Below, one piece after another: positions 1,589-24,756 of a stretch of 26,863 bases of DNA (positions are counted from its first letter, which is position 1; each line of letters starts with the position of its first letter). The stretch is from an uncultured Planctomycetaceae bacterium. GTDB lineage: Bacteria > Planctomycetota > Planctomycetia > Pirellulales > Thermoguttaceae. The stretch spans positions 1 to 26,863 of the forward strand of contig CAZFKF010000001.1 of NCBI GenBank assembly GCA_964518805.1, in the 5' to 3' direction. The position numbers and the translations under genes are program-made. The notes below the pieces were generated by a model that searched no databases, was not told where the DNA came from, and saw only the letters and a list, made by a program, of their open reading frames with translations.

Positions 1589-3841
1589 CTACTTGCGCAG
1601 CCAGAGGTAGCGGAGAAGCCCGTGCAGACGGATGCCGCCGCCCAGGGCGAGGATGCGCTGCACCGGGCGCTGCGGATACGCCTGCTGGTATGCGTCCAGC
1701 TCGGTCTTGACCTCCTGAAACAAGTCCTCGAAGACCGGCTGAACTGCCTCGTAGAGGGCGGCGGAATTGGCGGCGCTGGCGGGGTTTCGCTTCCATTGCT
1801 CGGCTTTGGCGAAGGGGATGCGGAACTGGCGAACCAGGGCCTTGCTGGCCCGATCGACACCCATGCTCGCCGTGCGGAACCACAGCCAGTCCCGACCGCT
1901 GACGATGAAGTTGGTCGAATCGGCCCCGATGTCGAGGATGGCCACCGGCGCGTCGGAGGAGGGCGTTTCGGGGTGGGCTTCCGCGTCTGGCGACCCGAAG
2001 GCGTAGGACACGAAGTTGTGCAGGGCCAGGCAGTCGTGCTGGACGATGTCGATCCGTAGCCCCATGTTGTGCATCGCCGCCAGCCAGGTCTTGAGCAGAA
2101 GGCGATTGACCCCAAATAGCCCCACTTGGATCTTGCCCGGCGGATCCGCGAGGGCCGCGCTTTCGTCGAGAATGGCGGACCGCCATTCGAGATCCGCCAG
2201 CGCCATCGGGAACGCGCCGATGCCGGCGTACTGGAGGGCGGCGTCGAACTTGTCGGGGGTCAGCGGCGGCATTTCGACGGGGCGGACCCAAACGCTCCGC
2301 GGCGGCAGGCTGAGGCAGACCCGGTCCGCCGTGCAATCGTTCTTGGCGAAGAACATGCCCACCGACGCCTCGATCAGCGAGCGTTGTTGGGTCTCGCTGG
2401 CGGCCTGGCTGAGGATCTTGTCGTGTTCGACGACGTCGCAGGCGGCCAGGACGACCGGTTCGGCGGGATCGTCGCCGCGCGTGAGTTTGACCGCCTTGAG
2501 ACCGCTGGAGCCTAGATCGATTCCCCAGGCTGACCGTGCCCGCCGCTTCGACAGCCATCGCACGGCCTTCTGCCACAGCTTGCCGTCGTCGGGCAGCAAG
2601 TTGATCTCGATGGCCGCCTCTCCAAGTCCCTGGAGGGCCGCGCCGCAGGCCACGGCGAATCGCCCTGGATTCTGCAACAGCGGGGCGGGATCGAGGGCCG
2701 GATCGAGTTCAATCTGCCCCAGGCCAGTGGCCCACTCCACGGGGAGCCCGATCGCCGCGTGCTCAGGCAGCGTCTTCCATCCCGGTCCGATCTGATCGAG
2801 ATTGCGAGGATGGTCGCGAAAGCGTTTCTCCAACTTCGTGCACAGCAATGCCAGTTCGTCGTCCTGAGGCGCCATCTGGCGCGCCTTGGCCGCCAGTTCG
2901 ACAAGGCACTCGTCGATCAGCGGAGCGCTGCTGAGATCCCAACGAAGGTGGAGCATTTCCCATGCTCGATCGCGGATCGCCCGCAACTCGTCGGTCTGAA
3001 GCGACTCGGGGATTTGGCTCAGGATCTTCTTGACTTCGCTATAGCGGCACTTGGCCAGCCGGAGCTGAGCGACTTCCACCAGGCGGGCCGAAATCCGGGC
3101 CCCGAGCCGCGCTGCCTCGGCGTGATCGGGTTGCAGGGTCAGCAGCCGTCCTACCTTGGCCAACGCCTCAGGCGTCAGAGCCGCTTGCCCCAACGTGTCC
3201 AGTTCCACGCTCAACTGCCCAATGTCCCGGAGCGAGGATCGGCATTCCTCGATCAGGCGGGCGGACTCCTCGGTGCGAACCGCCGGCGGCACGGCTTCGA
3301 GCACCACCAACGCCTGTTGGAAGTCGCGACGAAGCATCAGGTCGCGGGCTTTCTTTTCCGCCGCGATGGTCTTCTCCTGCCAAGCCCGACTCTGGGAGAC
3401 GCACTGCGGAATACGCTGAGCGGCGCGCTCCGCGAAATCGCGCAACCGGGAATCCTGGAGGGCGGCGATGGTCCGCAACAGGGCTAGCGCCTTGTCGAAG
3501 TGTCCCTCTCTCTCCAATTGGGTCGCCCTGTCGAGTTCCCCGTCAAGCTGCGCTAGTTGCTCCTGGAGCCAGTCAAGAAGGTTGGCTCCGCAGGCCCCGC
3601 AGAACTTCTCCGTGGCCGCGTTCGACGTACCGCATTGATAGCACGGCTCCCAAAGCCCGTGGCCGCAGTCGTGACAGAAGCGGTTTGTGGGTGGGTTGAG
3701 CGCGCGACAGGCCGCGCAGCGAATGCGGTCACCGCGCGCAGGAGGCGCAGCAGAAGCGCCCCCGGCAACTGGATTCTCTCGACCGTCCGATGGCGGCGCG
3801 CTGTGGCCCGATGCCGGTTTGGTCGAACGGTGAACGGCCAT
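1589..3841 (-). CDS. pilM: Double zinc ribbon / alpha-helical / PilM-like (actin-fold) fusion protein, ~750 aa
   Basis: N-terminal CAAC...CHDC...CYQC...CGAC (four CxxC). C-terminal PilM/FtsA-like motifs: AWGIDLGSSGLKAVKL, VAILDIGADSTNFIV, KALVRQFRIPFAKAEQWK, ILALGGGIRLHGL. ATG at 3841 preferred because AGGGA lies just upstream and it avoids overlap with the stop at 3852. Confidence 0.82.
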   Translation of the reverse strand: MAVHRSTKPASGHSAPPSDGRENPVAGGASAAPPARGDRIRCAACRALNPPTNRFCHDCGHGLWEPCYQCGTSNAATEKFCGACGANLLDWLQEQLAQLDGELDRATQLEREGHFDKALALLRTIAALQDSRLRDFAERAAQRIPQCVSQSRAWQEKTIAAEKKARDLMLRRDFQQALVVLEAVPPAVRTEESARLIEECRSSLRDIGQLSVELDTLGQAALTPEALAKVGRLLTLQPDHAEAARLGARISARLVEVAQLRLAKCRYSEVKKILSQIPESLQTDELRAIRDRAWEMLHLRWDLSSAPLIDECLVELAAKARQMAPQDDELALLCTKLEKRFRDHPRNLDQIGPGWKTLPEHAAIGLPVEWATGLGQIELDPALDPAPLLQNPGRFAVACGAALQGLGEAAIEINLLPDDGKLWQKAVRWLSKRRARSAWGIDLGSSGLKAVKLTRGDDPAEPVVLAACDVVEHDKILSQAASETQQRSLIEASVGMFFAKNDCTADRVCLSLPPRSVWVRPVEMPPLTPDKFDAALQYAGIGAFPMALADLEWRSAILDESAALADPPGKIQVGLFGVNRLLLKTWLAAMHNMGLRIDIVQHDCLALHNFVSYAFGSPDAEAHPETPSSDAPVAILDIGADSTNFIVSGRDWLWFRTASMGVDRASKALVRQFRIPFAKAEQWKRNPASAANSAALYEAVQPVFEDLFQEVKTELDAYQQAYPQRPVQRILALGGGIRLHGLLRYLWLRK

Positions 3842-3851
3842 CGATTCCCTG

Positions 3852-6026
3852 CTATGGAAGCCCATCAGCAACGGGCTCCGCCCTGGCTTGCGCCTTCATC
3901 CTCGGGCCGGCTTGCAGCGACGGAACGGTGACGACCAGAACCTCAACCGTGATCTCCTGGCGCTTGTCCGGCGGTGTCTCCGACTTCGCGTTGGCCCTCG
4001 TCAGGAGCACGTCCACCGAGCGGCATTGGCCATCCTCATCGTTCGAGACAAGGCCCTCCAGCCACACCCCGTCGGAAATGGAGTGGGTCTGGGCCGGCTT
4101 GTCCATTCGCTGCTTGAACACTCGCAGGTAATGGCCCAGCACGGCTCGCGGAAAGCCCATTTCCTCAATCCGGACGTACGAGACATCGACGGGCTCGCAC
4201 CCTGCCCCTCCGTCCTTGGCCGCTTGGACTCCAGGCCAGCGGACGCGATGGGACGCCACCACCGACGCCTCCGGGTGGAGCGTGATTCCCGCCAACGGCA
4301 CCGCGTTCTCCGCATCCTTGGCGCGGTCTGATGCACGACGATCGCGGGCCTTTTCGAGACCCGCGATCAGCAGCCGTCGGCAATACTCCCTCACCACGGC
4401 CTCTTCCGCTGCGAGCCACGCCTTCCGCGCCTTCTCGGACTTCCCTTTCTCCGTCTTTCGAGCTTCCGCCTCGCTCTTCGATGGATCGCCCCGCTTCGCC
4501 GAAGAACGAACCGAAGCTGCGGCGCGTTTCGCTTCCTCGCTATCAGCGTTCGGACGGGTGTCCCGCACGCTTTTGAGCACGGGCAGGATTCCGGGCTCGC
4601 CAAAAAACGATTTCGTCCAGCCGGCAGAGACCAGCGCGTCGGGACTCTCTTCCCAATGTCGCGCGAAGGTACGCGCGAGTCGCAACCGGGCCTCGGTCCT
4701 GGGGATCGTGGCGGCAAGCAGCACTGTGGTCGGGCTCTGGCCGAGGGTGTCCATCGCCACTTGCCGCTCATTCAAGAGCGCCGCGACGCCCCTATCCCAT
4801 AGAACGCGGACGGCGCGAGCAACCCATTCGCCATTCGTCTCGGCACCGAGCGCGGCCGTACGCATGCGATCATCCCCCAATCCGAACACCTGGATCACGG
4901 CTTTATGGCTGCACTCCAGGAGTTGTCTCTCGATGCGCGTCTCGACCTCCGGAGCCATGCGTGCGCTTCGGAACAACAGCGATTGGGCTTCGAGGTTTTC
5001 CGGACGGTTCCGTTCCAGCAACGGAATCGCGAGATTGCGCAAGTCCGCGGCGCATGCCGGTTCCGCTATCTCCTTGGCGAGACGTTGCCGGATCCCGCTT
5101 CCTCCGCTTTGATCGATGACTCCGAGGGCCAGTCTCTGGAGGTCTGCAGGCGTTATCCGGCCTTGGCCGAAAGCGCGAACAACCCCGGGTTGGGTCAACG
5201 CCGCAAGCAGCACACTGTTGTTCTCGTCGGAAGGCGTCTCGGCCATGGCCTTCAACGTCGCCTGCAGCAGGGCTTCATCGTCTTCCAGACGCAAGGTGCC
5301 GGCCAAGATGTCGGCAATCAGTTGCCGGCCCGCCGACGTGCGGTTCGCCGCCAGCGTCTTCGCGATGAGAGCCAAGGCTTGCGGCGGAAGAGGCGGGGTT
5401 GCCAAGGGTGGTTTCGTGGCGGCTGCCGAGTCCTTGGCGTCGGTCGATGGTTTCGGCGCCAACAAGTTCCTCAGAAAGACCGCCTGTGGCTCCTCGTTCG
5501 GAAAACGCTCGGCCCGATACTCCAATGCGGCCAGCAACCGAGGGTCGTTTCCGGATCGAGCGGCGAAGAAGTCAGCGTCCTTCCAGGCGGCGAGATCTTT
5601 GGGAAGAGGTGCGGTTTGCGGCATCTTGGCTTCCGCAACGGACGGAGGCGTCGTTGCGGTGGGGCCCGGCGTAGGGTTGCCAGGACTTGCCGCCACCTTG
5701 GGTGGTTCGGCAGCGTTCTGTGCTTTCTTCGCTTCTTCTGCCGCCCGTTTGGCCTCGTCGTTCTTTCTCTTCTCAGCCTCCGCGTCCCGCCTGCGCTCCT
5801 CCTCTTTCTTGGCTTCTGACTCCCGACGGTCCTTATGTTGCTTGAGCCACTCCTCTTTGGACATTCCCCCCCAGGCAGCGAACGGGTCCGCCTTGCGCTT
5901 CCCATAGCCGCGCATCAGCACCGATCCCGCCACGGCAATCAACACGACAACAGCGACCGCACCCACGATCTTCCAAGGGATTTCGCGAGCCTTCCTGCCT
6001 CGGATCGTCTTCCCACGCGCTGCCAT
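3852..6026 (-). CDS. Hypothetical bitopic membrane protein (N-terminal TM, Lys/Glu-rich coiled coil, Pro-rich linker, helical domain), ~724 aa
   Basis: Long ORF; basic N-terminus followed by IVGAVAVVVLIAVAGSVLM; ESEAKKEEERRRDAEAEKRK charged stretch; its ATG (6026-6024) overlaps the TGA of the upstream gene (TGATG). Confidence 0.8.
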   Translation of the reverse strand: MAARGKTIRGRKAREIPWKIVGAVAVVVLIAVAGSVLMRGYGKRKADPFAAWGGMSKEEWLKQHKDRRESEAKKEEERRRDAEAEKRKNDEAKRAAEEAKKAQNAAEPPKVAASPGNPTPGPTATTPPSVAEAKMPQTAPLPKDLAAWKDADFFAARSGNDPRLLAALEYRAERFPNEEPQAVFLRNLLAPKPSTDAKDSAAATKPPLATPPLPPQALALIAKTLAANRTSAGRQLIADILAGTLRLEDDEALLQATLKAMAETPSDENNSVLLAALTQPGVVRAFGQGRITPADLQRLALGVIDQSGGSGIRQRLAKEIAEPACAADLRNLAIPLLERNRPENLEAQSLLFRSARMAPEVETRIERQLLECSHKAVIQVFGLGDDRMRTAALGAETNGEWVARAVRVLWDRGVAALLNERQVAMDTLGQSPTTVLLAATIPRTEARLRLARTFARHWEESPDALVSAGWTKSFFGEPGILPVLKSVRDTRPNADSEEAKRAAASVRSSAKRGDPSKSEAEARKTEKGKSEKARKAWLAAEEAVVREYCRRLLIAGLEKARDRRASDRAKDAENAVPLAGITLHPEASVVASHRVRWPGVQAAKDGGAGCEPVDVSYVRIEEMGFPRAVLGHYLRVFKQRMDKPAQTHSISDGVWLEGLVSNDEDGQCRSVDVLLTRANAKSETPPDKRQEITVEVLVVTVPSLQAGPRMKAQARAEPVADGLP

Positions 6027-7210
6027 CAATGGCTCCTTGAGCTGCCGAAAACTGCCAGTTGCACGTTCAGCCGCAGGCGCGGGACGCGCGGATGATCGGT
6101 CACGATCACGATCTCCCCGTGGTTGCTCGCCAAGAAGTTGCAGGGCGGCGCGTCAGAAGGAACCTCCACGGCGATTCGATAGACCCCGGCCTTGGCTGGA
6201 TCAACCACCAATGGGACCACGCGGACGCGAAGGAACTCGGGCCGGGTCTCGATCCGTTGGACCGCAATCCGCCGCGGCTCGCCGCGAACGATGAGTGTCA
6301 AGTGCTCTTGGATCGTCTCCCCCTGCTGCAAAACACCCAGCTTCAGCGCGTCGAACTCGATCTTCTCTCCCGAGATCTCCAGGAAACCAGGCACCTGCCC
6401 GCAAAGCTTGATTTGGCAGCTCTGGCGCGGCGCTGCCCCGTCGCGAGGGTCCACCTCAATGCGTAGGGACTCCGAGAAAGGGCCGCCGGTGGGCATATCG
6501 TCTGGCAACGTTATCTTGAGCCGATAGCCGGCAAGCGCGGCGTGCCGCTTGAGCCATTCCTTGTCCGCGGGCTCGACGCTGCACGCCACCTTCGCCCGGC
6601 TGGATTCGGTCTTGGCGACGACGAATCGCGGCCACTGTTGGGAGTAGACAAACGCTTCCGCCGTCTCCTTCGCCCCTGGCAAGACACTGCCGAAATACAA
6701 CTCATCCGGCTCGACGCCCAACAGAACCCGGACCGATCCCATGATTCGCAGCTTCAACTCGCGTTGGTCGGGATCGTTCGTGCGAATCGAGGCCGTCTGA
6801 TGGAAGGGCCCCTCCTTTTCCGTTGGTTTCAAGCGCAAAGTGATCCGTCCTTCTTCGCCGGGCATGATTGAGCGGTCGCTCAGGCCGCTCATGGTGCACT
6901 TGCAGGTGGTGGGCCCCTGCTCCAGTTCCAGCGGCGCGGTTCCCTGGTTGCGAACCACGAACACGTGTTCGACCTCGGCCAGCGGGGCCATGACGCCGAA
7001 ATTGTGTTCCGTCTTGTCGATGACCAGCCTCGGCCGGCCTTGGGGAATGGCGGGCGGCGGATCGGCGATTTGGACATTCTCTTTGACCTGCTCTACAGGC
7101 CGCGTCTCAGCGATCCGGGCCTGCAACGAATCCCACGCCTGAAGGCAAACCCCCGCGCCGCATAGCGTCGCCATGCTCAGGATGAGCACAATCCAGAACA
7201 ACCGCTTCAT
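6026..7210 (-). CDS. DUF1573 domain-containing (Ig-like) exported protein, ~394 aa
   Basis: Signal/anchor MKRLFWIVLILSMATLCGAGVCL; DUF1573 pattern IDKTEHNFGVM...HVFVVRNQGTAPLEL...TCKCT...IMPGEEGRI...IRTNDP. AAGGAG lies 5 nt before the ATG at 7210. Confidence 0.85.
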   Translation of the reverse strand: MKRLFWIVLILSMATLCGAGVCLQAWDSLQARIAETRPVEQVKENVQIADPPPAIPQGRPRLVIDKTEHNFGVMAPLAEVEHVFVVRNQGTAPLELEQGPTTCKCTMSGLSDRSIMPGEEGRITLRLKPTEKEGPFHQTASIRTNDPDQRELKLRIMGSVRVLLGVEPDELYFGSVLPGAKETAEAFVYSQQWPRFVVAKTESSRAKVACSVEPADKEWLKRHAALAGYRLKITLPDDMPTGGPFSESLRIEVDPRDGAAPRQSCQIKLCGQVPGFLEISGEKIEFDALKLGVLQQGETIQEHLTLIVRGEPRRIAVQRIETRPEFLRVRVVPLVVDPAKAGVYRIAVEVPSDAPPCNFLASNHGEIVIVTDHPRVPRLRLNVQLAVFGSSRSH

Positions 7211-7290
7211 CGACACTCCTTCCCACGCAGCGCATCGAGAAAGGGCACCAACGTACCCTGTCGTTAACGGCCCATCTTAAGGTTCACGCG

Positions 7291-7385: not shown

Positions 7386-8804
7386 CTAGCCAGAACCAGA
7401 ACTACGCCGCAAGTCAATCGCGAGCAACTCCCTTTCGTTGCGCAAGAAGAGGATGCCGCCCGAGAGCGCGGGATACGCAAAACACGGAGCGGCCAACACG
7501 GGGTGTTCGGTGATGGCCAGGGGCGCCACGCCTTGGTCGGTCATCTGCAGCGAGGCCAGCAAGCCATTTTCGCCCCACAAGAGGTGGCGGCCTTCGACGG
7601 CGATGATCGTGCCATTGCGAATCCGCGAACGCCACTCCCACTGCAACTCGCCGCTAGCCAAGTCGAGGCATCGCAGCTTGCGGCGCGTCGTCGAATAGCC
7701 GCACACTCGTCGGCCCACGCACACCAGGTTGTTGTACTGGCTGTCGAGCAATTGACGCTTGTCGCGCCATAGTTCTTCATAGGAACCGCTGGGCAAGATG
7801 CGAATGCAGAGGTTGCCGATCTGGTAGCCCGACACGAAGACCATGTCCCCCGCCACCAGCGGCGTGGTGCCGTGGGCGGCTTCGTGATTGTTCGCGGAAA
7901 AAGGGATTCGCCAGCGGACCGCGCCGTCGGCCGGATCGATCGACACAAGGGCCTCGGCAGTCCACACGAACACGTGCCGTCGGCCGTGGACGGTGGCTGC
8001 CCGCGGCGTCGAGCAGCTTGCGCCATCGCGGGTTGCCGTCCAGAGGGTTCTTCCGCTCCCCTTGTCCAAGGCGATGACTCCAGCCCCGGCCTCCTTCCCG
8101 CCCAGGTTGAGAATCAGTCGCTCCCCATCCATGAGCGGACTTGCAGCCACGGGCCAGACGTCGATCTTCACCCGGTAGTCGTCGTGCAGGTTGCGGTGCC
8201 ACACTTCGGCGCCGTCGTCGAGGCGAAGGCAACACAACCGTCCCGTCGCCCCAATCGCGTAGACACGACCGTTGTCGATCACCGGGGTGCTGTAGGGGCC
8301 CGTACCGTAGCTGTGATTGCCGACGTAACTCGTGGGCCAGGAGAAATCCCACCGCGTGCTGCCCGTCTCGGTATCGAAGCACTCCACGATTTCGCGATCC
8401 TGCTTACGGTGCAAGAGGACCACCAAACCATCGATCGCGACCGGACCGGCATAGCCCGTGCCAACGTTGACACGCCATTTCTCCAACGGGCCGGCTCCCG
8501 ACCAGGAGAGGTTCAGGCCCGTCTCAGGCGAAGTCCCATCGTGCCGAGGGCCGAGAAGAGCCGGCCAACCCAGGGCGGTTCTTTGCGGCGGCGCAGCCTC
8601 GTGGCCTGCGGCTTCAGGCAGTGCGATCCGCTCCGCAGGCGCCGACGCGTCGCCCGAGGCCGTTAGGTCCCACGCCGGAGCGTGCTGCGTTCGCACGCCG
8701 GCCGAAGACCATCGCCGGCCCATCCAGTGCGCGCCGGAAACGACAATCCCCGTTATCGCCAGCAACAGGCCCCAGAAGACGGTGCGGCTCACGGCTCGTG
8801 ACAT
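7386..8804 (-). CDS. PQQ-type beta-propeller repeat protein (BamB-like family expanded in planctomycetes), ~472 aa
   Basis: WPALLGPRHDGTSPETGL, WRVNVGTGYAGP, CFDTETGSTRWDF, GPYSTPV, CLRLDDGAEVW, ALDKGSGRTLW, PALSGGILFLRN. GGAGG lies 4 nt before the ATG at 8804, preferred over 8900. Confidence 0.85.
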   Translation of the reverse strand: MSRAVSRTVFWGLLLAITGIVVSGAHWMGRRWSSAGVRTQHAPAWDLTASGDASAPAERIALPEAAGHEAAPPQRTALGWPALLGPRHDGTSPETGLNLSWSGAGPLEKWRVNVGTGYAGPVAIDGLVVLLHRKQDREIVECFDTETGSTRWDFSWPTSYVGNHSYGTGPYSTPVIDNGRVYAIGATGRLCCLRLDDGAEVWHRNLHDDYRVKIDVWPVAASPLMDGERLILNLGGKEAGAGVIALDKGSGRTLWTATRDGASCSTPRAATVHGRRHVFVWTAEALVSIDPADGAVRWRIPFSANNHEAAHGTTPLVAGDMVFVSGYQIGNLCIRILPSGSYEELWRDKRQLLDSQYNNLVCVGRRVCGYSTTRRKLRCLDLASGELQWEWRSRIRNGTIIAVEGRHLLWGENGLLASLQMTDQGVAPLAITEHPVLAAPCFAYPALSGGILFLRNERELLAIDLRRSSGSG

Positions 8805-8866
8805 GCAACCTCCGATGAACCACGACGGATTCGGGCACCGTGACTCCATCGAATAGGCGAGCCATG

Positions 8867-8887
8867 AGGCGAACTCCCTCTCCGCCT
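8867..8887 (-). other. Intergenic stem-loop with GAGGGAG loop after pilin A
   Basis: Minus strand AGGCGGA-GAGGGAG-TTCGCCT: 7 bp stem including one G-U pair, 25 nt after the pilin A stop. Confidence 0.35.
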
Positions 8888-8912
8888 GCAAGAATCCCAC
8901 TCGACGATCATG

Positions 8913-10079
8913 TCAGAATGCCGACAGCGGCCGTTTCTTTTCCAGAAACACGCCGCAGAACACGTCTCCGGGCAGCAATTCGATGGGTCCCGGCTTGTAT
9001 CCGCCCGCCTCTTGGCCCGTTTCGATGACGAACCCCGGGTTCAAATACCCATCGCGATTCTGATCGGCCACTTCTTTGACGCTCCCGTCGGCCATTAAGA
9101 GGTTGCACGACTTGCCATGAACGGCGCTCCACGCGCGCGTGTCCTGAAACCACGCGGGGCTACCCGTGCCATCCCGTTCGTACCGCACCTGACTTGTCAT
9201 GTCGATCGACGTCGAAGTGGCTTTCAAGAAGGCAATCGACTGGTTGGCGCTGTCGTACGTCGCGGGGCCTCGGTTGTAGGAGTTGCTCAGCGTGACCCCT
9301 GCCTGGATATACACCCTATTCGCGTCCTGGATGGTCGTCGACAGGACGGCGCTCTCCGCGCTAGGCAGACCACCGTCGCCTAGAAGCGGGATGTTCGAGC
9401 TCGGGACCACGCCGTTGTCCACGGTACGCGTGGTCAGCGGCCCCGTCGTGCCATACAGACCGACCGTGTTTCTTTCGGACTGGGGCGATTCCGCGTTCGG
9501 GAAGTACCACGTGTCGTTGGCCGCCGCTTTCAGCCGCAGCCCGCCTCGCACGAGAAACCAACTGGCCGCGTAGTTGGTGTTGTAACCCTTGGCCAGGAAA
9601 TTCCTGGCCAGATATGCGGCACGGTCTCCGGCGGTGCTGCCTCCAAATGTTCCGCTGCACGCGCCGGCAGTCAAGCGGTCCGCGGTTGCTCCGTCTAAGG
9701 GCGGCGTCGCTGTCGTGTCACCGGCAGTCAGCATAACGCCGAAGGCCTGGTTTCCCGACAAGTCGCCCGCTGGGTTCAAGAGGTCGCCGGGCCGGCAGGC
9801 TCCCATATTCACCAAGTCTGCCACCCAGCCCCACGTATCGAGACAACCGTCGCGTTGGTAATCGACCGCCCCGGAACAGAATCGGCCTTGGGGGTCTCTG
9901 GCAGCGAACTGCATCAATCCTAAACCCAACTGTCGGAGATTGGCCTTATCTTGACTATTGCGGGCCGACCCCCTCGCCTGGAGAATCGCCGGCAGCGCGA
10001 TGGCTGCCAAGAGCGCGATGATGGCAATCACCACGAGCATTTCGACGAGCGTAAAACCGAGCCGCGCCTTGTTGCACAT
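8913..10079 (-). CDS. DUF1559 family prepilin-like protein (pilin A), 388 aa
   Basis: Class III signal RLG|[23 protein letters not shown]; C-terminal H-X9-DG motif [12 protein letters not shown]; AGGAGGA ribosome-binding site. Confidence 0.93.
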
Positions 10080-12045: not shown

Positions 12046-15000
12046 TCAACGTCTCGACGCACCGGCGTGGACACTTGTCTGTCGGCGAAGCAACTCCAAG
12101 TCGTTGGCCGCCTGCTCTTGGAGTGGATGGCCGATTGCTCGGTAGACCTGCCATCGCAGCACAAGGAGTTCTTCGTTCCAGGGAATATACGGCTCGTAGG
12201 CCAGAAGCGATTCGCTCACCGCCTCGCGCCCGACGTGCCGGGCAACCTCCAGGGCGGTCGATCGCCGGGTTTCTTCGTAGACCCAGACCGCAAGAGGTTC
12301 CCTCAACGCTCGGTACAGGCGGGGCGCCTGCTCGCGATCGGCCTCGACCACTCTTGAAACCGCTGGGAACGCGAGTTCCAACGCGTGGGCCAACCCCCAG
12401 GGGCTGGACCGCAACCGCGTGAGGACGCGGTGGAGCAGGTCCGCCGATTCTCGGTACTTGCCCTGTTTCGATGCCAGATAGGCGTCGATGGCGTCCGCCT
12501 CGGTCGGCCGGAAGGCCCGCAGCCGACGCGTCAATTCGCGTGCCTTGTCGCTGCCGAGGTTCGCGTAGCCGAGAGCAAGCAGCGCCGTCTCCGAGGGAAA
12601 CAGCGGCTCGTAGGCAGCCCTTTCCCATGTTTCCACCATTCCCTTCGTGTCGGCCTGCCAGTAGAGTTTCATCGCCTCGGCCCGAGCCTTGTGCTCCGCC
12701 GTGGGCTGGGATGGCAAGACGATCTTCCCCGCCAGCGCGTCGAGGATCTGGCGATGTCCCTCGACACGGTCCCAGTTGACCTCACTCTCCCCATCCAACG
12801 GCGGTCGATGCGCGCCGCACGCGACGGCCTCTTGACGCAGGTCTTGGATCGAGAAACCCGTCGACATTCCCACGCTTCGCGCAAACCCGTACTCGATGCG
12901 GTTGCGGTCATCGGTGTTGACCCACCCGGCCTCCTCGCCGGCAACCTCGTCCGCCAACGCTGATCCGGCTACGAATCGCGACAGCAGGCCCTCCAGGTCG
13001 GCGACGCGCCACCCACAGGCCACCGCGGTTCGAAAAGGATCCTGGGCGATCCTGTCGCGCAGACGTGCCGCGCGATAGCTCAACGGCCGGCGCGAGCACA
13101 CCAACAACATGTCGTCGTTCTTCGACTGCCAAACCTCGACGTATCCGAACACCGAACGGAGCGTCGCCAGGACAGCCCGCACCGTCTGCTCGTCGATCTC
13201 GTAGCCTTGCACCCATTGTACAAACAGTCCCTCCGGCTCAAGGCGAGCGAGCGAGGCTTCGTAGAATTCGCGAGTGAAGAGGCTGGCGACACCTGCCCGA
13301 TAGGGGTTCGACGGCTCTGAGGCAATGATGTCGTAGCGATCGGATGCCGTGAGCAGCACCTCGCGGGCGTCGTTGTAGATCCGCCGGACCTTCGGGTGGT
13401 GGAGGACATCGAAGTTGACCGCGGCGCAGCGGCGGGCCATCTCGTCGACGGCGGGTTCCAGTTCGACCACATCGACCCGCTCGATTCCCGGAACCTCGGC
13501 CAGCCATCCGGGAGTCTCGCCCGTGCCCAACCCGACTATCAAGCCCGTCCTGGGATTCGCGTGCAGCAGGGCTGGAAGCACGCCCAACATGATCTGCGTA
13601 CCAGCGTCGCCGATCGCATCGCCATCGCTCTTTCCGTTGACGAAGAAGGACAACCCGTTGGCAGCAACGAGAGCCACGCTGGCCTCAACGCCCTCCGCCT
13701 CCCACAGCACCTGGCGTCGTCTGGAGTTCACCCAATCGCGCAGCGTATTGGCGTCTCCGGCAGGCAGCGCGAAGCGGCCCGCCCCGATCCCGCTGTGGCG
13801 CTAGACGGCCGTAGGGCCGGTTGCCCCCAAGAGCAGAACGGACACGACTCCAGACGCAAGACAGAGCAGCGGTCCCAGTATCGAGTCCTTCGTCTTCAGA
13901 TGCCCGAGGCTCCCGGGAGTTGGGGCGTGTCCGGCGCGAGTCCCTCTCTCCCGCTTCGCATGAGCGACAGGAGCGGCGGAGACTCCTCCCCGGTTCAACG
14001 GCCGTTGACCTCGGACAACGATCAGAATCGCCGCCGCACTCAACAGCGCCAGCAGGCCCACCACGACCCGCCATGCTCCCAGCGCCGTGAGCAACGGCAA
14101 CAGGCCGAACCCGCCCGCCAGACTGCCGAAGATCGCTCCGGCGGTATTCCAGGCGGCGGTGAGCCCGACCTCCCGGCCAACCTCTTCGTTGCCTCGGCCG
14201 CAGAGCGCAATCAACAGCGGAAACTGGACGCCAGCCACCAAGGCCGCGGGGAAGACCGTGATCGCGGCGATCAGCGTCCAGCCTGCCGCGCGATCAGCGA
14301 AACCGGCGCTAGCCTGTTGTAGCACGGCCGCGTAGATCGCCAATCGATCGCCCAAGGCGTAAGGGACGGCAATGCCCACCGCCTCCAGGCCGCACGTCAT
14401 CGCCAACGCGTTCAGATTTGGGGACAAGCGACGGAATAGAAACGGATAGATCGCCCCGCCGACGCCGATCCCGGCAAGCGCTACGGCCAAAATCAGCCCG
14501 AACGTGTAGGTTGTGCCGCCCAGGATCGGACCGAGCATCCGGTACCAGACCAGTTCCATGACGAAGAACCCGAACCCGACGCCGCATGCTGTGGCGTAGA
14601 CGAACCAGAGCGGCGTCTGCACCAGAGCCCCGGGGGAGGACGCCCGCCGCCTCGCCCTATCTTGGCCGAGTGGTACCGGCGCCGCAGCGCCCAGGGGACG
14701 GCGTTCCGACCGCTTTATCTCAAGAATCCCCGCCCCGGCCGATTCCCGCACCCCACACGAGCTTACCCAGGCGACGGCGCCGACGATCATCCCCGTCAGG
14801 CACGCCATCCATAAGGTCAGGCGTCCGCTCAAGTGCGGGAGCAGCAGGAATGTGCTCACCGTTGCGCCAACGACGGCTCCCAGCGTATTCAATCCATAGA
14901 GCCGTGCGACGTCCCGGCGCGGACCGTCGTCGCACGCAGTGACTGCCTTGGCAGCCGCGGGAAGCGTGCCTCCCATCAAGAACGTCGGCAACGCGATCGC

Positions 15001-15396
15001 TGCGGCACACAGTGCCAAGCGCACCAGCGTCGCCCCCGCGGCCCCCAGCGCCGACTGTCCGCCCATCGCCATGTACGCCACCCGGCTCAGGTCGATCAGC
15101 CAAGGGCTCGCCGCGGCAGCCAGTGCAATTCCTGTTTCCAGAACGGCATACATCCTGACCGCATTGGGAGTTCGATCGGCCCTTCGCCCCAGAACCGCGC
15201 TGCCAACTCCCAACCCGCCCATGAAGACGGCCATCACCGCGGCGGAGGCCGCGGTCGACGACCCGAAGACCAATCGGAACTCGCGGAACCAGCTGGCCTG
15301 GAGCACCAACGCGGCCATGCCCGAGAAGAACACCAACGCGGCCATGAGCCAAATCGGGGCGCTCGCCGGCATGGGCGACCATCGGCCGCCCGGCAT
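12046..15396 (-). pseudogene. Fused multi-pass membrane / spermidine-synthase-like SAM-binding protein interrupted by an in-frame TAG at 13801-13803
   Basis: ORFs 13801-15435 and 12046-13731 share a frame and read continuously as ...GATGPTAV*RHSGIGAGR...; the N-half has two hydrophobic repeats (WFREFRLVFGSST, WYRMLGPILGGTTY); the C-half has IVGLGTGET, DVVELEP and YDIIASEPSNP. Start probably 15396 (AAAGGAAG upstream) or 15435. Confidence 0.8.
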
Positions 15397-15451
15397 TACG
15401 TCTTCCTTTGCGTCGTTTGCTGTCTTCACGATCATAGCTCGGGCGCTGTCC

Positions 15452-17128: not shown

Positions 17129-18406
17129 TCATTCGTAGTTGACCAGCTTCTTCTGCCAGACGTTCTTGTAGAACATTCCGCTGAAGACCTGAGTGCGCGG
17201 CAAGTCCTCTTCGGGGCCGGTGAAGCCAACGCGGCTGGCGAGCGTCCCCGTCGTCGCATTGACCACGTACTGCACCGCGCCAGCGCCCGTGACCGGGAAG
17301 CCGGGGTTCAGCAGGCCGTCGCCGTTGGCGTCGCCGAACTGCTGGACCGAGCCGTCAGCCATCAGGATGTTGCACGACCCGTTGTGGTAGCACATCCAGT
17401 CGCGGGTGTCCTGGAGGCAGAGGCTGCCGTAGTTCGCACTCTGGGCTTCCTCGAAAACCTGCCCGGAATAGCTCGTCGTACCGGCGGTGTTGAGGTTCGC
17501 AACGACGCCGACGGTTGCATTGTTCGGGCTGACGGTATCGATCCCCGAGGCGCCGCCCCAGGTGGCCGGACCGTCGTTGAATGACTCGACCAACCGATCG
17601 CCAGCGCCGAGGAAAGGCTTGCCCTTGTAGGTGAGGGCCGCAAGCAGGACCGCCTCGTTCGGGTCGCCTGGGGTGCCGTCGCCCAGCAGCGGGATCATGT
17701 TGCTGGGGATGGACGACTTGTCGATGTCCGACCGGCGAATCGGGCCATCGCCGCAGTCCTTGGCCTTGTAATTGGTGTAGGCAACTCCCTGCCGCCCCAT
17801 CGATTCGGTGTGGATCTCATAGCCCGTGATCTTGCCGTTCGCAGCCTGTACGACGTTCGTGACCACGGTCCTCGGCTGCCCGCGGACGAAGAAGTTGCTC
17901 GCCACGTAGTTGGACGAGTAGCCCTTGTCGATGATGTACTTGCTGACCGCGTCGGCCGTAGCCGTCCCGCTCGCGTTAACTCCGATCATGTCCGTCTGCG
18001 AGCACGCCCCGGCCGCTTGATCCTTGACGTCGGCGACTTCGGCACCGGTGACCGAGCTGCCGCCCAACAGGTCGTTGAGCTTCTCCATCCCCTTGGCCGG
18101 GTTGGAGGGGCAGAGCATGTCGACCGGACGGCAATAGCCAGAATTCACCAGGTCGGCAACCCAGCCGTAGCTGTCGACGCAGCCGTCGCGGCGGTTGTCG
18201 TAGGCGCCGGTGCAATAGCGGGTGTAGGGGTCGTGATCCGCGTGGATCATAAACCCGATGCCGAACTGGCGCAGATTGCTCTGGCACTGGGCCGAACGGG
18301 CCGCTTCGCGGGCGCGGCTCAAGGCCGGCATCAACATGGCCACGAGGATGGCGATGATCACGATCACCACCAGCATCTCGACAAGAGTAAAACCTTTACG
18401 CTTCAT
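17129..18406 (-). CDS. DUF1559 family prepilin-like protein (pilin B, candidate major subunit), 425 aa
   Basis: MKRKG|[23 protein letters not shown]; [26 protein letters not shown]; GGAGA ribosome-binding site. The major-subunit role is inferred from the long leader and downstream hairpin. Confidence 0.94.
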
Positions 18407-19608: not shown

Positions 19609-20769
19609 CTATGGATTCGGGATCGCTGGCGTGGGCGGTTTGGCTTTCAAATCCCAGCAACTGAAGAACTCGTCGGGCGGTAGCTCGACGATGTCGCTGG
19701 TGAAGCCGCCGTTGCCGCCGGGGAAACCGTTGTTCAGCAGCCCGTCCTTGTTGGTGTCGATCACGGTGCGCACGCCACCGTCGGCGAACAGCACATTGCA
19801 CCCCCCGCGATGCACCGGACCGAATTCCCGATAGTCTTGAAGCGTCTGGTTGTTCCAGATGGCCCACCAGCCGTCCGCGCCCGTGCGCGGCGTTCCCGCG
19901 GCCGGCGACGGCGCCACCAGGGTCGTCTTCAGCACCGGGCCTCGCGTCGTCGGTCGCACGGCGGGCGCATCTCGAAGCGACGCGATGTCCGCGTTCAACG
20001 AACCGCTCGGCGACCCGCACCCCATGAGCGGTACAAAACAACTGGACGACTTGGCAACGTCTGCCTGGGCCCGCGGCAACGGCCCCTGCGTACTGTGGAT
20101 CGACAACAACGAGGCTTCGCATCCCGCCTTGTCCGTCTTGAGTTGGCCCGAGTCGTTCAGCACCACAGCCGAACGGACCAGGAGCCAACTCGGCGTGTAA
20201 TTCGTATTGAAGTGCTTGTCGTAGATCAGTTTCTGCACGACGAAGACGCGTCCGGCACTGCCCGGTGCCATGTCCGCGATGGTGCGGCACGGGTTGGTGA
20301 TCGGGCTCCCGTCGGGCGCCGTCTCAGAGGGGCTGCCGCGGTAGTCGATGCAATCGCCGGGGGTCGGCGCTGGCACGGCGAAGTTCACCAGATCGTTGAA
20401 TGTCTCGCTGATCTGCGCGGGATTGGACGGGCACAGCATTTTTCCCAGGGCATAGCCTTGGGCGACCAAATCCGCCACCCAGCCTTTCTCGGTGACGCAA
20501 CCGTCGCGAACCCAGTCGAACGCCCCCGAGCACAACGTCCCGTGCGTTGTGGCGTGCGATGAAAGCCCGACGCCGATCTGCTTCAGGTTCATCTGGCACG
20601 CGCTGGAACGCGCAGTCTCCCGAGCGGAGTTGAGCGCCGGCATCAGGATCGCCGCCAGCAACGTCAAGATCGTGATGACGACCAGCACCTCGATCAGCGT
20701 CATCGCTCTCCGCACGGCAAGCCTCGCCGCGCCGGGAGCCCTCATGTCGATGCGATGCAATCCAACCAT
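19609..20769 (-). CDS. DUF1559 family prepilin-like protein (pilin C), 386 aa
   Basis: RRA|MTLIEVLVVITILTLLAAILMPA; ACQMNLKQ, LCPSNP, HRGGCNVLFADG; GAGGAG lies 6 nt before the ATG at 20769. Confidence 0.92.
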   Translation of the reverse strand: MVGLHRIDMRAPGAARLAVRRAMTLIEVLVVITILTLLAAILMPALNSARETARSSACQMNLKQIGVGLSSHATTHGTLCSGAFDWVRDGCVTEKGWVADLVAQGYALGKMLCPSNPAQISETFNDLVNFAVPAPTPGDCIDYRGSPSETAPDGSPITNPCRTIADMAPGSAGRVFVVQKLIYDKHFNTNYTPSWLLVRSAVVLNDSGQLKTDKAGCEASLLSIHSTQGPLPRAQADVAKSSSCFVPLMGCGSPSGSLNADIASLRDAPAVRPTTRGPVLKTTLVAPSPAAGTPRTGADGWWAIWNNQTLQDYREFGPVHRGGCNVLFADGGVRTVIDTNKDGLLNNGFPGGNGGFTSDIVELPPDEFFSCWDLKAKPPTPAIPNP

Positions 20770-22773: not shown

Positions 22774-24756
22774 ATGAGCGACCGACCGGCAACCGATGCG
22801 TACCATCGCTGGCTGGGAATTCCCCCGGAGGAACAACCGCCGGACCATTATCGCTTGCTGGGCCTGGAACGCCTTGAAGACGATCCCCGAGTGATCGAGC
22901 AACGCAGCGACGAGCGCATGCGTTTGGTGAACGGCTACCGCCGCGGTCCTCACGTCAAGGTGTGCGACCAGATCCTGCAACACATTAAGGTCGCGAGGGC
23001 CTGCCTGTTGAACCCTTCGTTGAAAGCCGCGTACGATCGAACCTTGAAGCCGCCGGCGTCAGCGGACCATGGCGACGACCAGGACAACTGGTTCGATTCC
23101 GAAGGAGGCTTCGTTGCGGCAGGGCGCTCTTCGGTCGATCCGGCCGAGACCGAAGGACGCGGTGCCGCGCCCGAGGCCAATCGCGTGCGGGACATCGCCG
23201 CCTCGCGCAGCGGCAAGCCGAAGGATCGCCCGTCGGAGCGTCCCGCTCCTCGAATGGCGGACTCCGCTTCGCATCGGTCCGCCGACCCGGCGCTCGCCAC
23301 TTGGCTGCCTGAAGACGCAGGTTATGAACTGTTGCCGCCACAGAATGGCGACGGGCTGGCAGAGGATGAGACGGCGATTTCGGCTGAGGCTGCCGTCCCT
23401 GAGGACAGCGAAGATCCTTCGGAAAACGACTCCGCTCCTGATGGCCGAGAGACGCCGCGGTCGAACAAACGGAGGGCGTTTCTCCTTGGATTTGTGGGAA
23501 CGACGGCTGTCATCGCCGTCGGAATTGCGTTTTGGACGGGATGGCTGCCCGCGGTGCCCAGCGAACGGCTCATGGGCGAATCGAGGAAGTCGTCCGAGCC
23601 GCTCGTTCCCCGAGCCAGCGCCGAACGGCCAGTGCCGAAGCCGACGACGCGCCCCCCGGACGCGCCTCGCGCCGAGGTCCCCAACGCCATGGCGACGTCG
23701 GTCACGGCGATAGCCCCGCAGGCAGGCGTTGAGATTGGCGTGGCCTACGGAACCGAAAAGCGATACTGGCTTGAATGGGCCGTTAAGGAATTCGCCGCCA
23801 GCCAAGAGGGGAAGGCTGTCCGAGTGAACTTGATTCCCATGGGTTCGCTGGAGGGCGCGCACGCCGTGATCGACGGCGACAAGCGGATTCACGTCTGGAC
23901 CCCGGCCAGCAGTCTCTATCGCGAAACGTTCGTCAGGGACTGGAAGGCCCGGCGGCTGGGCGACCCGATCGCCAAGCAAGAAGTGTTGGCGCTCACGCCG
24001 ATGCTGATCGTGATGTGGAAACAACGCTACGAAGCCTTCGCGGCCCGAGCGCCGGACTTCTCGTTCAAGACCTTGGCGTTTGCGATGGGGACGCCCGAAG
24101 GATGGGGACGAATCGCCGGCAGGCCGGAATGGGGGCGATTCAAGCTGGGCCATACGCACCCCAATCAATCCAACTCGGGATTGATGACGCTCGTCATCCT
24201 TGCCTACGAGTATACGGACAAGGACGCAGGGCTGACGGTGAGCGACGTGATGTCGCAGAACTTCCAGGACTTCGTCGGCCGGTTCGCGCAACGGGTTCAC
24301 GGATTCTCGAACTCCACGGGCAACCTGATGAAGGAAATGGTTCTCAAGGGACCGTCGAGCTACGATGCGTTGGTGGTCTACGAGTCGGTTGCCGTCGAAT
24401 TCCTCACCAGTGCCGAGGGCCGGTGGGAGCAACTCCAGATCATCTATCCGCGACACAACCTTTGGAGCGACAACCCGTACTATATCCTCAACACGCCATG
24501 GTCGACCCCAGAGCACCGGAACGCGGCCGAGGCCTTTCTGCGTTTCCTGACGGGCGAAGCCGCCCAGAAGAAGGCTCTCGAACACGGCTTCCGTCCGGGA
24601 AATCCGAAAGTGCCGGTCAAAGGGCCACAAAGTCCGCTGGCGCGCTACGAGAAGTACGGCCTGAAGATCGATTTGCCGGAAGTCTGCCAAGTGCCGTCGG
24701 CCGACGTTCTGGACAACCTGCTTCAGAGTTGGATTCGCGCGACGTCACCCCAATGA
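22774..24756 (+). CDS. J-like domain / TM / solute-binding domain protein, 660 aa
   Basis: N-terminal AYHRWLGIPPEEQPPDHYRLLGL...CLLNPSLKAAYD; acidic linker; TM AFLLGFVGTTAVIAVGIAFW; C-terminal VEIGVAYGTEKRYWLEW...HTHPNQSNSG...HGFRPGNP. GAGGTG ribosome-binding site. Confidence 0.88.
   Translation: MSDRPATDAYHRWLGIPPEEQPPDHYRLLGLERLEDDPRVIEQRSDERMRLVNGYRRGPHVKVCDQILQHIKVARACLLNPSLKAAYDRTLKPPASADHGDDQDNWFDSEGGFVAAGRSSVDPAETEGRGAAPEANRVRDIAASRSGKPKDRPSERPAPRMADSASHRSADPALATWLPEDAGYELLPPQNGDGLAEDETAISAEAAVPEDSEDPSENDSAPDGRETPRSNKRRAFLLGFVGTTAVIAVGIAFWTGWLPAVPSERLMGESRKSSEPLVPRASAERPVPKPTTRPPDAPRAEVPNAMATSVTAIAPQAGVEIGVAYGTEKRYWLEWAVKEFAASQEGKAVRVNLIPMGSLEGAHAVIDGDKRIHVWTPASSLYRETFVRDWKARRLGDPIAKQEVLALTPMLIVMWKQRYEAFAARAPDFSFKTLAFAMGTPEGWGRIAGRPEWGRFKLGHTHPNQSNSGLMTLVILAYEYTDKDAGLTVSDVMSQNFQDFVGRFAQRVHGFSNSTGNLMKEMVLKGPSSYDALVVYESVAVEFLTSAEGRWEQLQIIYPRHNLWSDNPYYILNTPWSTPEHRNAAEAFLRFLTGEAAQKKALEHGFRPGNPKVPVKGPQSPLARYEKYGLKIDLPEVCQVPSADVLDNLLQSWIRATSPQ

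Follow-up and report, generated by a model that had tools for sequence, protein, structure and literature searches.

In Pseudomonas aeruginosa and Thermus thermophilus, the type IV pilus proteins PilM and PilN are separate polypeptides, and PilN continues from its N-terminal peptide into a transmembrane helix. The P. aeruginosa PilN starts with MARINLLPW, as read from the chain of PDB entry 5EOU ('PilM:PilN1-12'), and the PilMN complex is regarded as the orthologue of GspL from the type II secretion system (PMC4471445). Here we describe a different arrangement of these elements, which is encoded in a 26,863-nucleotide stretch of DNA from an uncultured Planctomycetaceae bacterium (assembly GCA_964518805.1, contig CAZFKF010000001.1, positions 1 to 26,863), hereafter called the window. 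A gene on its reverse strand encodes a 760-amino-acid, predicted cytoplasmic protein, in which a PilN-type INLLP peptide and a PilM domain are parts of one chain. We propose that this protein is a circularly permuted PilM-NLLP fusion, whose motif is docked in cis in the PilN groove of its own PilM fold; the probability that we assign to this reading as a whole is about 0.7. An earlier note on this DNA had pointed to the INLLP peptide ahead of the PilM domain and suggested that the protein may carry its own ligand.

Circular permutation of the PilM domain

The Pfam matches of the 760-amino-acid protein are a double zinc ribbon (PF12773, DZR; residues 52-95, 35.2 bits) and PilM_2 (PF11104; residues 450-756). 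The complete order of elements along the chain is a zinc ribbon and a tetratricopeptide repeat (TPR)-like domain, a PilM C-terminal segment, a 13-residue spacer, NLLP, a basic amphipathic linker, and the PilM core (Table 1). On its own, the 85-amino-acid segment is dropped by the HMMER filters and has no Pfam match. The C-terminal segment was recognized in a phmmer comparison with the PDB, in which a second, weak stretch at residues 371-418 (HAAIGLPVEWATGLGQIELDP...GRFAVACGAALQGLGE) corresponds to residues 344-392 of Myxococcus xanthus PilM, its C-terminal end. When a profile of this segment (residues 366-447, 83 positions, built from 36 relatives) was searched against all PDB sequences, the four best matches were all PilM C-termini, namely 5EOU, 3JC8, 5EOX, and 2YCH (E-values of 0.0014, 0.014, 0.12, and 0.16, respectively). 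The profile alignment to 5EOU, which is an engineered PilM:PilN1-12 chimera, extends through '...ACGLALRSFDSSgMARINLLP', and thus covers both the helix of PilM and the PilN peptide attached behind it.

Full-length PilM models are covered only in part by the protein in its native order: PF11104 is matched over positions 1-294 of 340 (55.6-56.1 bits, above the cut-off of 27), and TIGR01175 over positions 4-302 of 348 (60.4 bits, below the cut-off of 133). We therefore de-permuted the protein in silico, by excising residues 363-430 and re-attaching them behind residue 760. In this construct, PilM_2 covers positions 1-338 of 340 with 60.8 bits (+4.7), and TIGR01175 covers positions 4-347 of 348 with 66.0 vs. 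60.4 bits (+5.6). The PilM core terminates one helix past the GGG motif, and the C-terminal strand and helix that would normally follow are missing from it. In a MAFFT alignment of 169 full-length family members, most of which represent clusters at 50% identity, GGG is followed by 14 residues in 96 sequences. The colinear order of a regular PilM is thus not retained, since the C-terminal strand/helix piece (371-418) is found upstream of the core. De-permuted members are collinear with the natural PilM-NLLP fusions described below at about 30% identity, and the seam between the two parts joins 'GGGxxLxGLxxx' to 'LGxPVxW'. Because the motif directly trails the displaced PilM C-terminal strand and helix, we consider it very probable that the protein is a circular permutant of a PilM-NLLP fusion and is derived from that fusion type. 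Full-text literature searches returned no description of a permuted PilM, and only permutations of the PilN/PilO ferredoxin fold turned up.

The permuted architecture is widespread. In a search of 1.84 billion cluster representatives, at least 222 reach E<=1e-30 with the first 445 residues of the protein; the best 150 of these matches are mostly 700-900 amino acids long, and most of their alignments reach or cross the motif region. The genome scan yielded 28 loci, all from independent metagenome-assembled genomes (MAGs) of Planctomycetota, and 26 of these loci have the permuted architecture. Short family members were considered as possible 'split' versions, and this was rejected when they turned out to be fragments or frameshifts. 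Outside the window, a subfamily of permuted PilM proteins of 820-890 amino acids (P0014-P0018, P0246, and P0261) is lengthened at the N-terminus by about 100 residues; the start of two fragments, 'DPY..LLNI..QRPL..YQ(I/L)L.LKP', is J-domain-like in appearance. The contig is of the metagenome type and some of the database relatives are fragmentary or frameshifted, which would suit an artefact such as a frameshift, a misassembly, or a chimera of two pilM copies on one contig. Yet the chance of such an artefact is negligible, as 169 full-length proteins, drawn from many independent assemblies, share this architecture, synteny is conserved, and neither a second copy of the C-terminal segment nor a continuation in another frame was found downstream of the stop codon.

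Conservation of the INLLP motif and its spacing

Some 20 residues separate the INLLP motif (residues 423-427) from the PilM core downstream of it, the PilM_2 match of which begins at residue 450. No other [IVL]NLLP occurs in any of the six reading frames of the window, where about 0.07 occurrences are expected from composition. In 40 close relatives, the N is retained in 36, the first L in 39, the second L in 31, and the P in 22. Across the 169 aligned members, N occupies position 424 in 133 cases and D in another 25 (N/D in 93%), position 425 is L in 156 (92%), position 426 is L in 76 and A, M, or V in 51, and position 427 is P in 126 (75%); positions 428-430 are variable. Judging from these alignments, we regard the motif as real and conserved and not as a chance occurrence. 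The best-conserved part of the region is the displaced C-terminal helix, in which A408, G410, A412, and L413 vary little or not at all among the 169 sequences. Counted from the helix glycine (G410) up to the N of NLLP, the spacer measures 13 residues in each of the 169 permuted proteins and in all 96 natural fusions that were compared, and it is 14 residues in 5EOU.

The INLLP of the window protein aligns with the ARINLLP of the PilN(1-12) portion of 5EOU. However, the other hallmarks of PilN are absent: the motif is followed by neither a transmembrane helix nor a hydrophobic stretch, the protein has no match to the PilN family PF05137, and a 19-residue basic linker leads directly to the PilM core. 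These observations corroborate several statements of the earlier note, which had given the position of INLLP ahead of the PilM fold, identified it as a cis-encoded peptide of the kind found at the N-terminus of PilN, and listed its conservation in orthologues among the checks. Its description of a peptide placed just before the PilM domain is right as to position, but has to be revised in substance: this is not a free peptide before a normal PilM, and it comes right after the displaced strand and helix from the PilM C-terminus.

The substitutions of L426 and P427 in many members could be explained if NLLP were an evolutionary relic, i.e., a leftover linker that no longer docks in the groove and owes its conservation to spacing or to contacts with the membrane or a partner. 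We consider this explanation very unlikely, as N/D424 and L425 exceed 92% in 169 diverse sequences while the adjoining linker positions are free to vary, the length of the spacer is invariant, and the motif is modeled with good confidence both here and in an unpermuted relative (see below).

Natural PilM-NLLP fusions in Planctomycetota

One of the 28 loci encodes a 398-amino-acid colinear relative (L027, positions 7983-9179, forward strand) that ends with '...EAFAVACGLALQGLGHVAVDVDFLPSGIQGKRRR...RRMAGRFLGRFRRRRP', in which PilM and the same helix are followed by an NLLP-type motif and a basic tail. This protein scores 171 bits on the NCBIfam Amuc_1101 family ('PilM-like pilus complex proteins'), and its 417 homologues originate largely from Phycisphaerae and other Planctomycetota, according to the annotated and scanned sources. 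Most of these homologues are 650-690 amino acids long and read '...LSFAVAYGLALQGLDLTSVSTNLLPAEIARKRIWAKKSPWFAAAAAVLVAATAMPLY...', which includes PilM, NLLP, a basic juxtamembrane stretch, a transmembrane helix, and about 290 further residues. The PilM domain of the natural fusions closes with 'SFAVAYGLALQGL', which is followed by the spacer and NLLP, and the transmembrane helix begins 12-14 residues past the motif. A cis-encoded PilN-type peptide after PilM can therefore be viewed as the normal state in Planctomycetota, analogous to GspL. The motif in cis, which the earlier note had presented as a peculiarity of this protein, is thus genuine, but it reflects the norm in a phylum where PilM is fused to NLLP and a transmembrane helix. 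In two of the fusions (P0060 and P0075), the C-terminal half (residues ~350-670) has no Pfam match to PF05137 PilN, and therefore the term 'PilN-type' refers here only to the motif and the transmembrane arrangement.

A subgroup of short forms (L027, P0045, P0047, and P0054; 377-398 amino acids) keeps the NLLP-type motif, whereas the transmembrane helix and the periplasmic part are replaced by a basic amphipathic C-terminal helix. This tail recalls the membrane-targeting helices of FtsA and MinD. The linker between the motif and the core of the permuted proteins has comparable properties. In 117 of the 169 members, P427 and W449 are 21-22 residues apart. The linker of the permuted family has a mean net charge of +3.8 and a helical hydrophobic moment of 0.74-0.82 (0.69-0.79 in the C-terminal tails of the short forms). 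It would take the position of the juxtamembrane and transmembrane region of PilN. It is possible, although we hold this tentatively, that the linker binds the membrane surface and in this way replaces the lost transmembrane helix.

The short forms without a transmembrane helix are a plausible precursor type of the permutant. As the most plausible origin of the permutation, we envisage a tandem duplication in which two copies of a PilM-NLLP gene were fused in frame, after which the first core and the second C-terminal piece were lost.

Predicted structure and probable docking of the motif

We modeled the window protein as a monomer with AlphaFold2 on the 40-sequence alignment and compared the model by region using the predicted local distance difference test (pLDDT) and as a whole using the predicted template modelling score (pTM). 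The displaced segment (371-420) has a pLDDT of 90-95, the motif block (421-430) of 82, and the linker helix (432-440) of only 56, compared with values below 50 for the true loops at 1-46 and 629-638. The predicted secondary structure of the displaced segment consists of a strand (378-380), a bridge (388-389), and two helices (396-400 and 406-415). The same order is found at the C-terminal end of the model of the unpermuted relative P0045 (strand 313-315, bridge 322-323, helices 328-335 and 337-350), which places the new termini of the permuted protein in the loop between the post-GGG helix and the last strand of subdomain 2A. In the P0045 model, the spacer and the N-F of NFLP reach a pLDDT of 96.

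In a Foldseek comparison with the PDB, the top ten matches of the window protein are all PilM structures (E-values of 1e-11 to 1e-14, template modelling score (TM-score) normalized to the target up to 0.71), followed by FtsA. The model is thus predicted to adopt an actin-like ATPase fold with subdomains 1A, 1C, 2A, and 2B. The alignments to PilM span 314-323 columns for the permuted model vs. 357-371 for the unpermuted P0045, and in these models the shorter span is what is expected for a permutant under a sequential aligner. The target-normalized TM-scores of the permuted model are 0.69-0.71 to PilN-bound PilM structures (5EOU, 2YCH, and 3JC8) vs. 0.53-0.61 to PilN-free ones (5EOX, 5EOY, and 5EQ6); the corresponding values for P0045 are 0.79-0.81 vs. 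0.66-0.71. The nucleotide-binding motifs of the core (phosphate 1, phosphate 2, and adenosine GGG) are conserved among the 169 members: G450 in 169, D452 in 164, D647 in 159, G649 in 165, G744 in 167, G745 in 158, and G746 in 142. The nucleotide-binding signature is therefore intact.

Docking of INLLP in cis, in the groove between subdomains 1A and 1C that is used by PilN, is probable in our view. The pLDDT of the motif block and that of the equivalent region in P0045, the better fit to PilN-bound structures, and the linker length of 21-22 residues are all counted for it. A different outcome would be docking in trans, in which the displaced segment, INLLP, or both serve the core of a neighboring molecule in domain-swapped dimers or head-to-tail polymers. 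Relatives of PilM and FtsA do oligomerize, and the PDB lists FtsA double filaments and 24 PilM chains across the architectural-model entries 3JC8/3JC9; moreover, a linker of 21-22 residues predicted with a confidence of 56 could in principle reach an adjacent subunit, and a monomer prediction is compatible with swapping. Nevertheless, we regard docking in trans as unlikely, given that the monomer is predicted confidently (pTM 0.74, 90-95 for the segment), that the 13-residue spacer is shared with the natural fusions and is close in length to the 14 residues of 5EOU, a chimera crystallized as a single chain, and that the narrow distribution of linker lengths is more in keeping with a fixed distance within one molecule than with a flexible tether. 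Head-to-tail polymerization, also raised in the earlier note, found no favorable evidence in our analysis.

The motif docked in cis might also be mobile. In this case, INLLP would plug the groove reversibly and would be displaced by a PilN-like partner or by a signal transmitted via the zinc-ribbon/TPR domain, resulting in a regulated autoinhibition. The difference in fit between PilN-free and PilN-bound PilM structures and the somewhat relaxed motif at two positions are in line with this possibility, as is the observation, given in the title of a study on P. aeruginosa, that PilN binding alters the conformation and partner choice of PilM (McCallum et al., 2016, as cited in PMC8389850). We nevertheless judge it quite improbable: there is no gene with an NLLP-type N-terminus in the window or in the conserved cassette, the 725-amino-acid neighbor has a signal/lipobox-type N-terminus and no conserved cytoplasmic tail, and the segments that tether the peptide at either end are short and conserved in length, which would make its release costly. 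Thus, of the two consequences that the earlier note had drawn from a self-filled groove, independence from PilN is the reading that we favor, whereas autoinhibition gained no support; the invariant spacer and the C-terminal segment missing from the core favor a constitutive structural role.

Gene neighborhood and domain architecture

The features of the permuted PilM gene and of its neighborhood are listed in Table 1. The profile of the TPR-like region matches the TPR region of DNAJC3 (2y4t, E=3.7e-5), and TPR_19 is matched by 3 of 16 family members. No Rfam families or tRNAs were found in the window.

Table 1. Permuted PilM gene, its parts, and the associated cassette genes (window positions; residues are those of the 760-amino-acid protein).
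Feature	Position	Strand	Basis and remarks
Whole permuted PilM gene	1589..3871	-	Open reading frame; Pfam DZR and PilM_2; AlphaFold2 pLDDT 86.6, pTM 0.74
Double zinc ribbon, residues ~49-97	3581..3727	-	PF12773; Cys positions nearly invariant
All-helical TPR-like repeat domain, residues 98-353	2813..3580	-	AlphaFold2 helices, pLDDT ~90-97
Displaced PilM C-terminal segment, residues 371-418	2618..2761	-	Last beta-strand of 2A and C-terminal helix of 1A; sequence PGRFAVACGAALQGL
PilN-type INLLP motif, residues 423-427	2591..2605	-	Translation, conservation, 5EOU alignment
Basic amphipathic linker, residues 428-446, DDGKLWQKAVRWLSKRRAR	2534..2590	-	Connects PilN-type peptide to core beta-strand 1
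PilM core, residues 447-756, subdomains 1A/1C/2A/2B	1604..2533	-	PF11104, TIGR01175, Foldseek
725-amino-acid exported or signal-anchored protein	3852..6029	-	Directly upstream of permuted PilM gene; 20-nucleotide overlap (3852-3871)
DUF1573 / Ig-like exported protein	6026..7216	-	PF07610, 64.9 bits; synteny; 4-nucleotide overlap with 725-amino-acid gene (6026-6029)
PQQ-type beta-propeller gene, inserted into cassette in window	7386-8900		Position in cassette
DUF1559 prepilin-like protein, N-terminal methylation motif	8913..10079	-	PF07963 and PF07596; synteny

The permuted PilM gene is the last member of a cassette, DUF1559 - DUF1573 - ~700-amino-acid protein - permuted PilM, that recurs in most of the loci (L001-L031; 3852-10079 on the reverse strand of the window for the part upstream of permuted PilM). 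In Planctopirus limnophila, DUF1559 forms the largest family of paralogues, one without a known function, and two of its members are essential in this species (PMC10632474). Two more genes for DUF1559 prepilin-like proteins with the N-terminal methylation motif are present in the window (17129-18406 and 19609-20769, both on the reverse strand), which fits the expansion of this family in Planctomycetes. No match to the PilN, PilO, PilP, or PilQ families was found near the permuted gene, the neighbors of which encode DUF1559, DUF1573, the ~700-amino-acid protein, and an ABC-2 permease.

The 725-amino-acid protein contains an N-terminal hydrophobic anchor followed by Lys/Glu-rich and Pro-rich stretches, and has no Pfam or NCBIfam match. 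A gene of this type is located directly upstream of permuted PilM in about 17 of the 28 loci, and also in L029 and L031. A word search gave only five close homologues, and homologues at other loci have a lipobox-like '..GC' behind the hydrophobic segment. We considered this neighbor as a surrogate PilN that might supply the lost transmembrane and periplasmic parts, and rejected it for its lack of similarity to the C-terminal half of the fusions and for its signal/lipobox-like N-terminus.

Other genes of the window include an adjacent pair encoding spermidine-synthase-like and MFS-like proteins (12046-13731 and 13801-15435, both on the reverse strand), which again lies beside the cassette in locus L015 at 51-56% identity. 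The 798-amino-acid open reading frame at 24015-26411 on the forward strand has a weak Zn_ribbon_5 match at residues 324-350; it overlaps a gene for a solute-binding protein (22774-24756), and its listed start is probably too far upstream.

Proposed evolution and role of the permuted protein

The ancestral chain would have consisted of the PilM core, its last beta-strand and C-terminal helix, the 13-residue spacer, NLLP, a basic juxtamembrane stretch, a transmembrane helix, and a periplasmic part. In the permutant, the piece from the strand to NLLP would have been relocated ahead of the core, with loss of the transmembrane helix and the periplasmic part, and a short basic amphipathic helix would bridge NLLP and beta-strand 1 of the core. 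The zinc ribbon and the TPR-like domain would have been gained at the new N-terminus. The displaced strand and helix presumably complete subdomains 2A and 1A of their own chain, while INLLP would permanently staple the structure together and would also contribute to the connection between the old C- and N-termini. With INLLP permanently in the groove, the protein would be locked in a 'PilN-bound' state, and would thus be independent of a separate PilN. The zinc-ribbon/TPR module, located on the 2A side, may recruit the cassette partners, i.e., DUF1559, DUF1573, and the 700-amino-acid exported protein.

Several observations weigh against this interpretation. L426 and P427 are replaced in a sizeable minority of the members (L in 76 and P in 126 of 169, respectively), so that a strict PilN-like recognition may be relaxed. 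The groove contact in cis is inferred from homology, confidence values, and length constraints, and the proposed membrane binding of the linker is deduced solely from its amphipathicity and charge. The cassette includes no PilB, PilC, PilO, or PilQ, and therefore a role in a pilus platform would be hypothetical. As to the origin, no tandem-duplicate intermediate was found among the sequences, and a neighbor-joining distance tree of the de-permuted, long, and short forms neither polarized their relationship nor revealed the parent type.

With these points in mind, our broader view is offered tentatively, as somewhat short of an even chance: we suggest a widespread natural permutation (at least 220 clusters) of an actin-fold ATPase, with a peptide borrowed from PilN as the covalent connector, that would represent an undescribed cytoplasmic component, equipped with a zinc-ribbon/TPR module, of the planctomycete-specific DUF1559 cassette, maybe an assembly or sorting platform tethered by its amphipathic helix. 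The colinear PilM-NLLP fusions and the permuted family would constitute a natural before/after pair for circular permutation through duplication and truncation in the actin/PilM fold, in which a peptide for protein-protein docking has been turned into an intramolecular connector. The hard-wiring of the PilM-PilN interaction in cis in Planctomycetota also matters for annotation, as all these proteins are currently labeled 'PilM'. In addition, a PilM-like scaffold linked to DUF1559 pilin-like cassettes provides an experimental handle on the function of DUF1559.

Comparison with known systems

The closest relatives of the permuted family are the PilM-PilN-type fusions of Planctomycetota and Phycisphaerae, which are annotated as 'type IV pilus assembly protein PilM' and are related to the NF045709 Amuc_1101 family of Akkermansia; the window protein scores 61.7 bits on NF045709, far below the cut-off of 650. 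Both groups have a homologous core (about 30% identity after de-permutation), the helix 'FAVA(C/Y)GLALQGL', the 13-residue spacer, NLLP, and the basic stretch. However, the natural fusions are colinear and continue from NLLP into the transmembrane helix and about 290 periplasmic residues, whereas the window protein is permuted, lacks the transmembrane and periplasmic parts, and contains the zinc-ribbon and TPR-like domains. The short PilM-NFLP proteins without a transmembrane helix resemble it in that the 13-residue spacer leads to an NLLP-type motif, in their case [ND]FLP, and a basic amphipathic helix stands in place of the transmembrane helix, but they are colinear, have no zinc-ribbon/TPR domain, and are only about 28% identical.

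The permuted protein is a natural counterpart of the PilM:PilN chimera engineered for crystallography. In 5EOU, the PilN peptide MARINLLPW is attached to the PilM C-terminus through a 14-residue spacer vs. 13 residues here, and this chimera and the T. thermophilus PilM-PilN peptide complex 2YCH are among the best structural matches of the window protein; 5EOU, however, is artificial and colinear. In GspL of the type II secretion system, a PilM-like cytoplasmic actin-fold domain and PilN-like parts are combined in one polypeptide, as they are here. Unlike the window protein, GspL is colinear and spans the membrane, and it does not have the NLLP peptide-in-groove arrangement. The matches to GspL are weak: 17 bits on PF05134 (T2SSL; cut-off 25.5), 21.3 bits on TIGR01709 (cut-off 65), the latter for the de-permuted construct only, and a TM-score to target of about 0.55 in Foldseek.

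FtsA belongs to the same fold class and provides the second-best structural matches; however, the window protein falls far below the FtsA sequence cut-offs, is permuted, and has no cell-division context. FtsA binds the membrane via a C-terminal amphipathic helix, and the basic amphipathic helix of the permuted protein and of the short forms resembles this mode. According to its entry title, the FtsA structure 7Q6I was solved with an FtsN(1-29) peptide. This peptide binds in the cleft between 1A and 1C of FtsA. Thus, the window protein is classified as a permuted variant of the PilM-PilN fusion kind, separate from regular PilM, PilN, and GspL.

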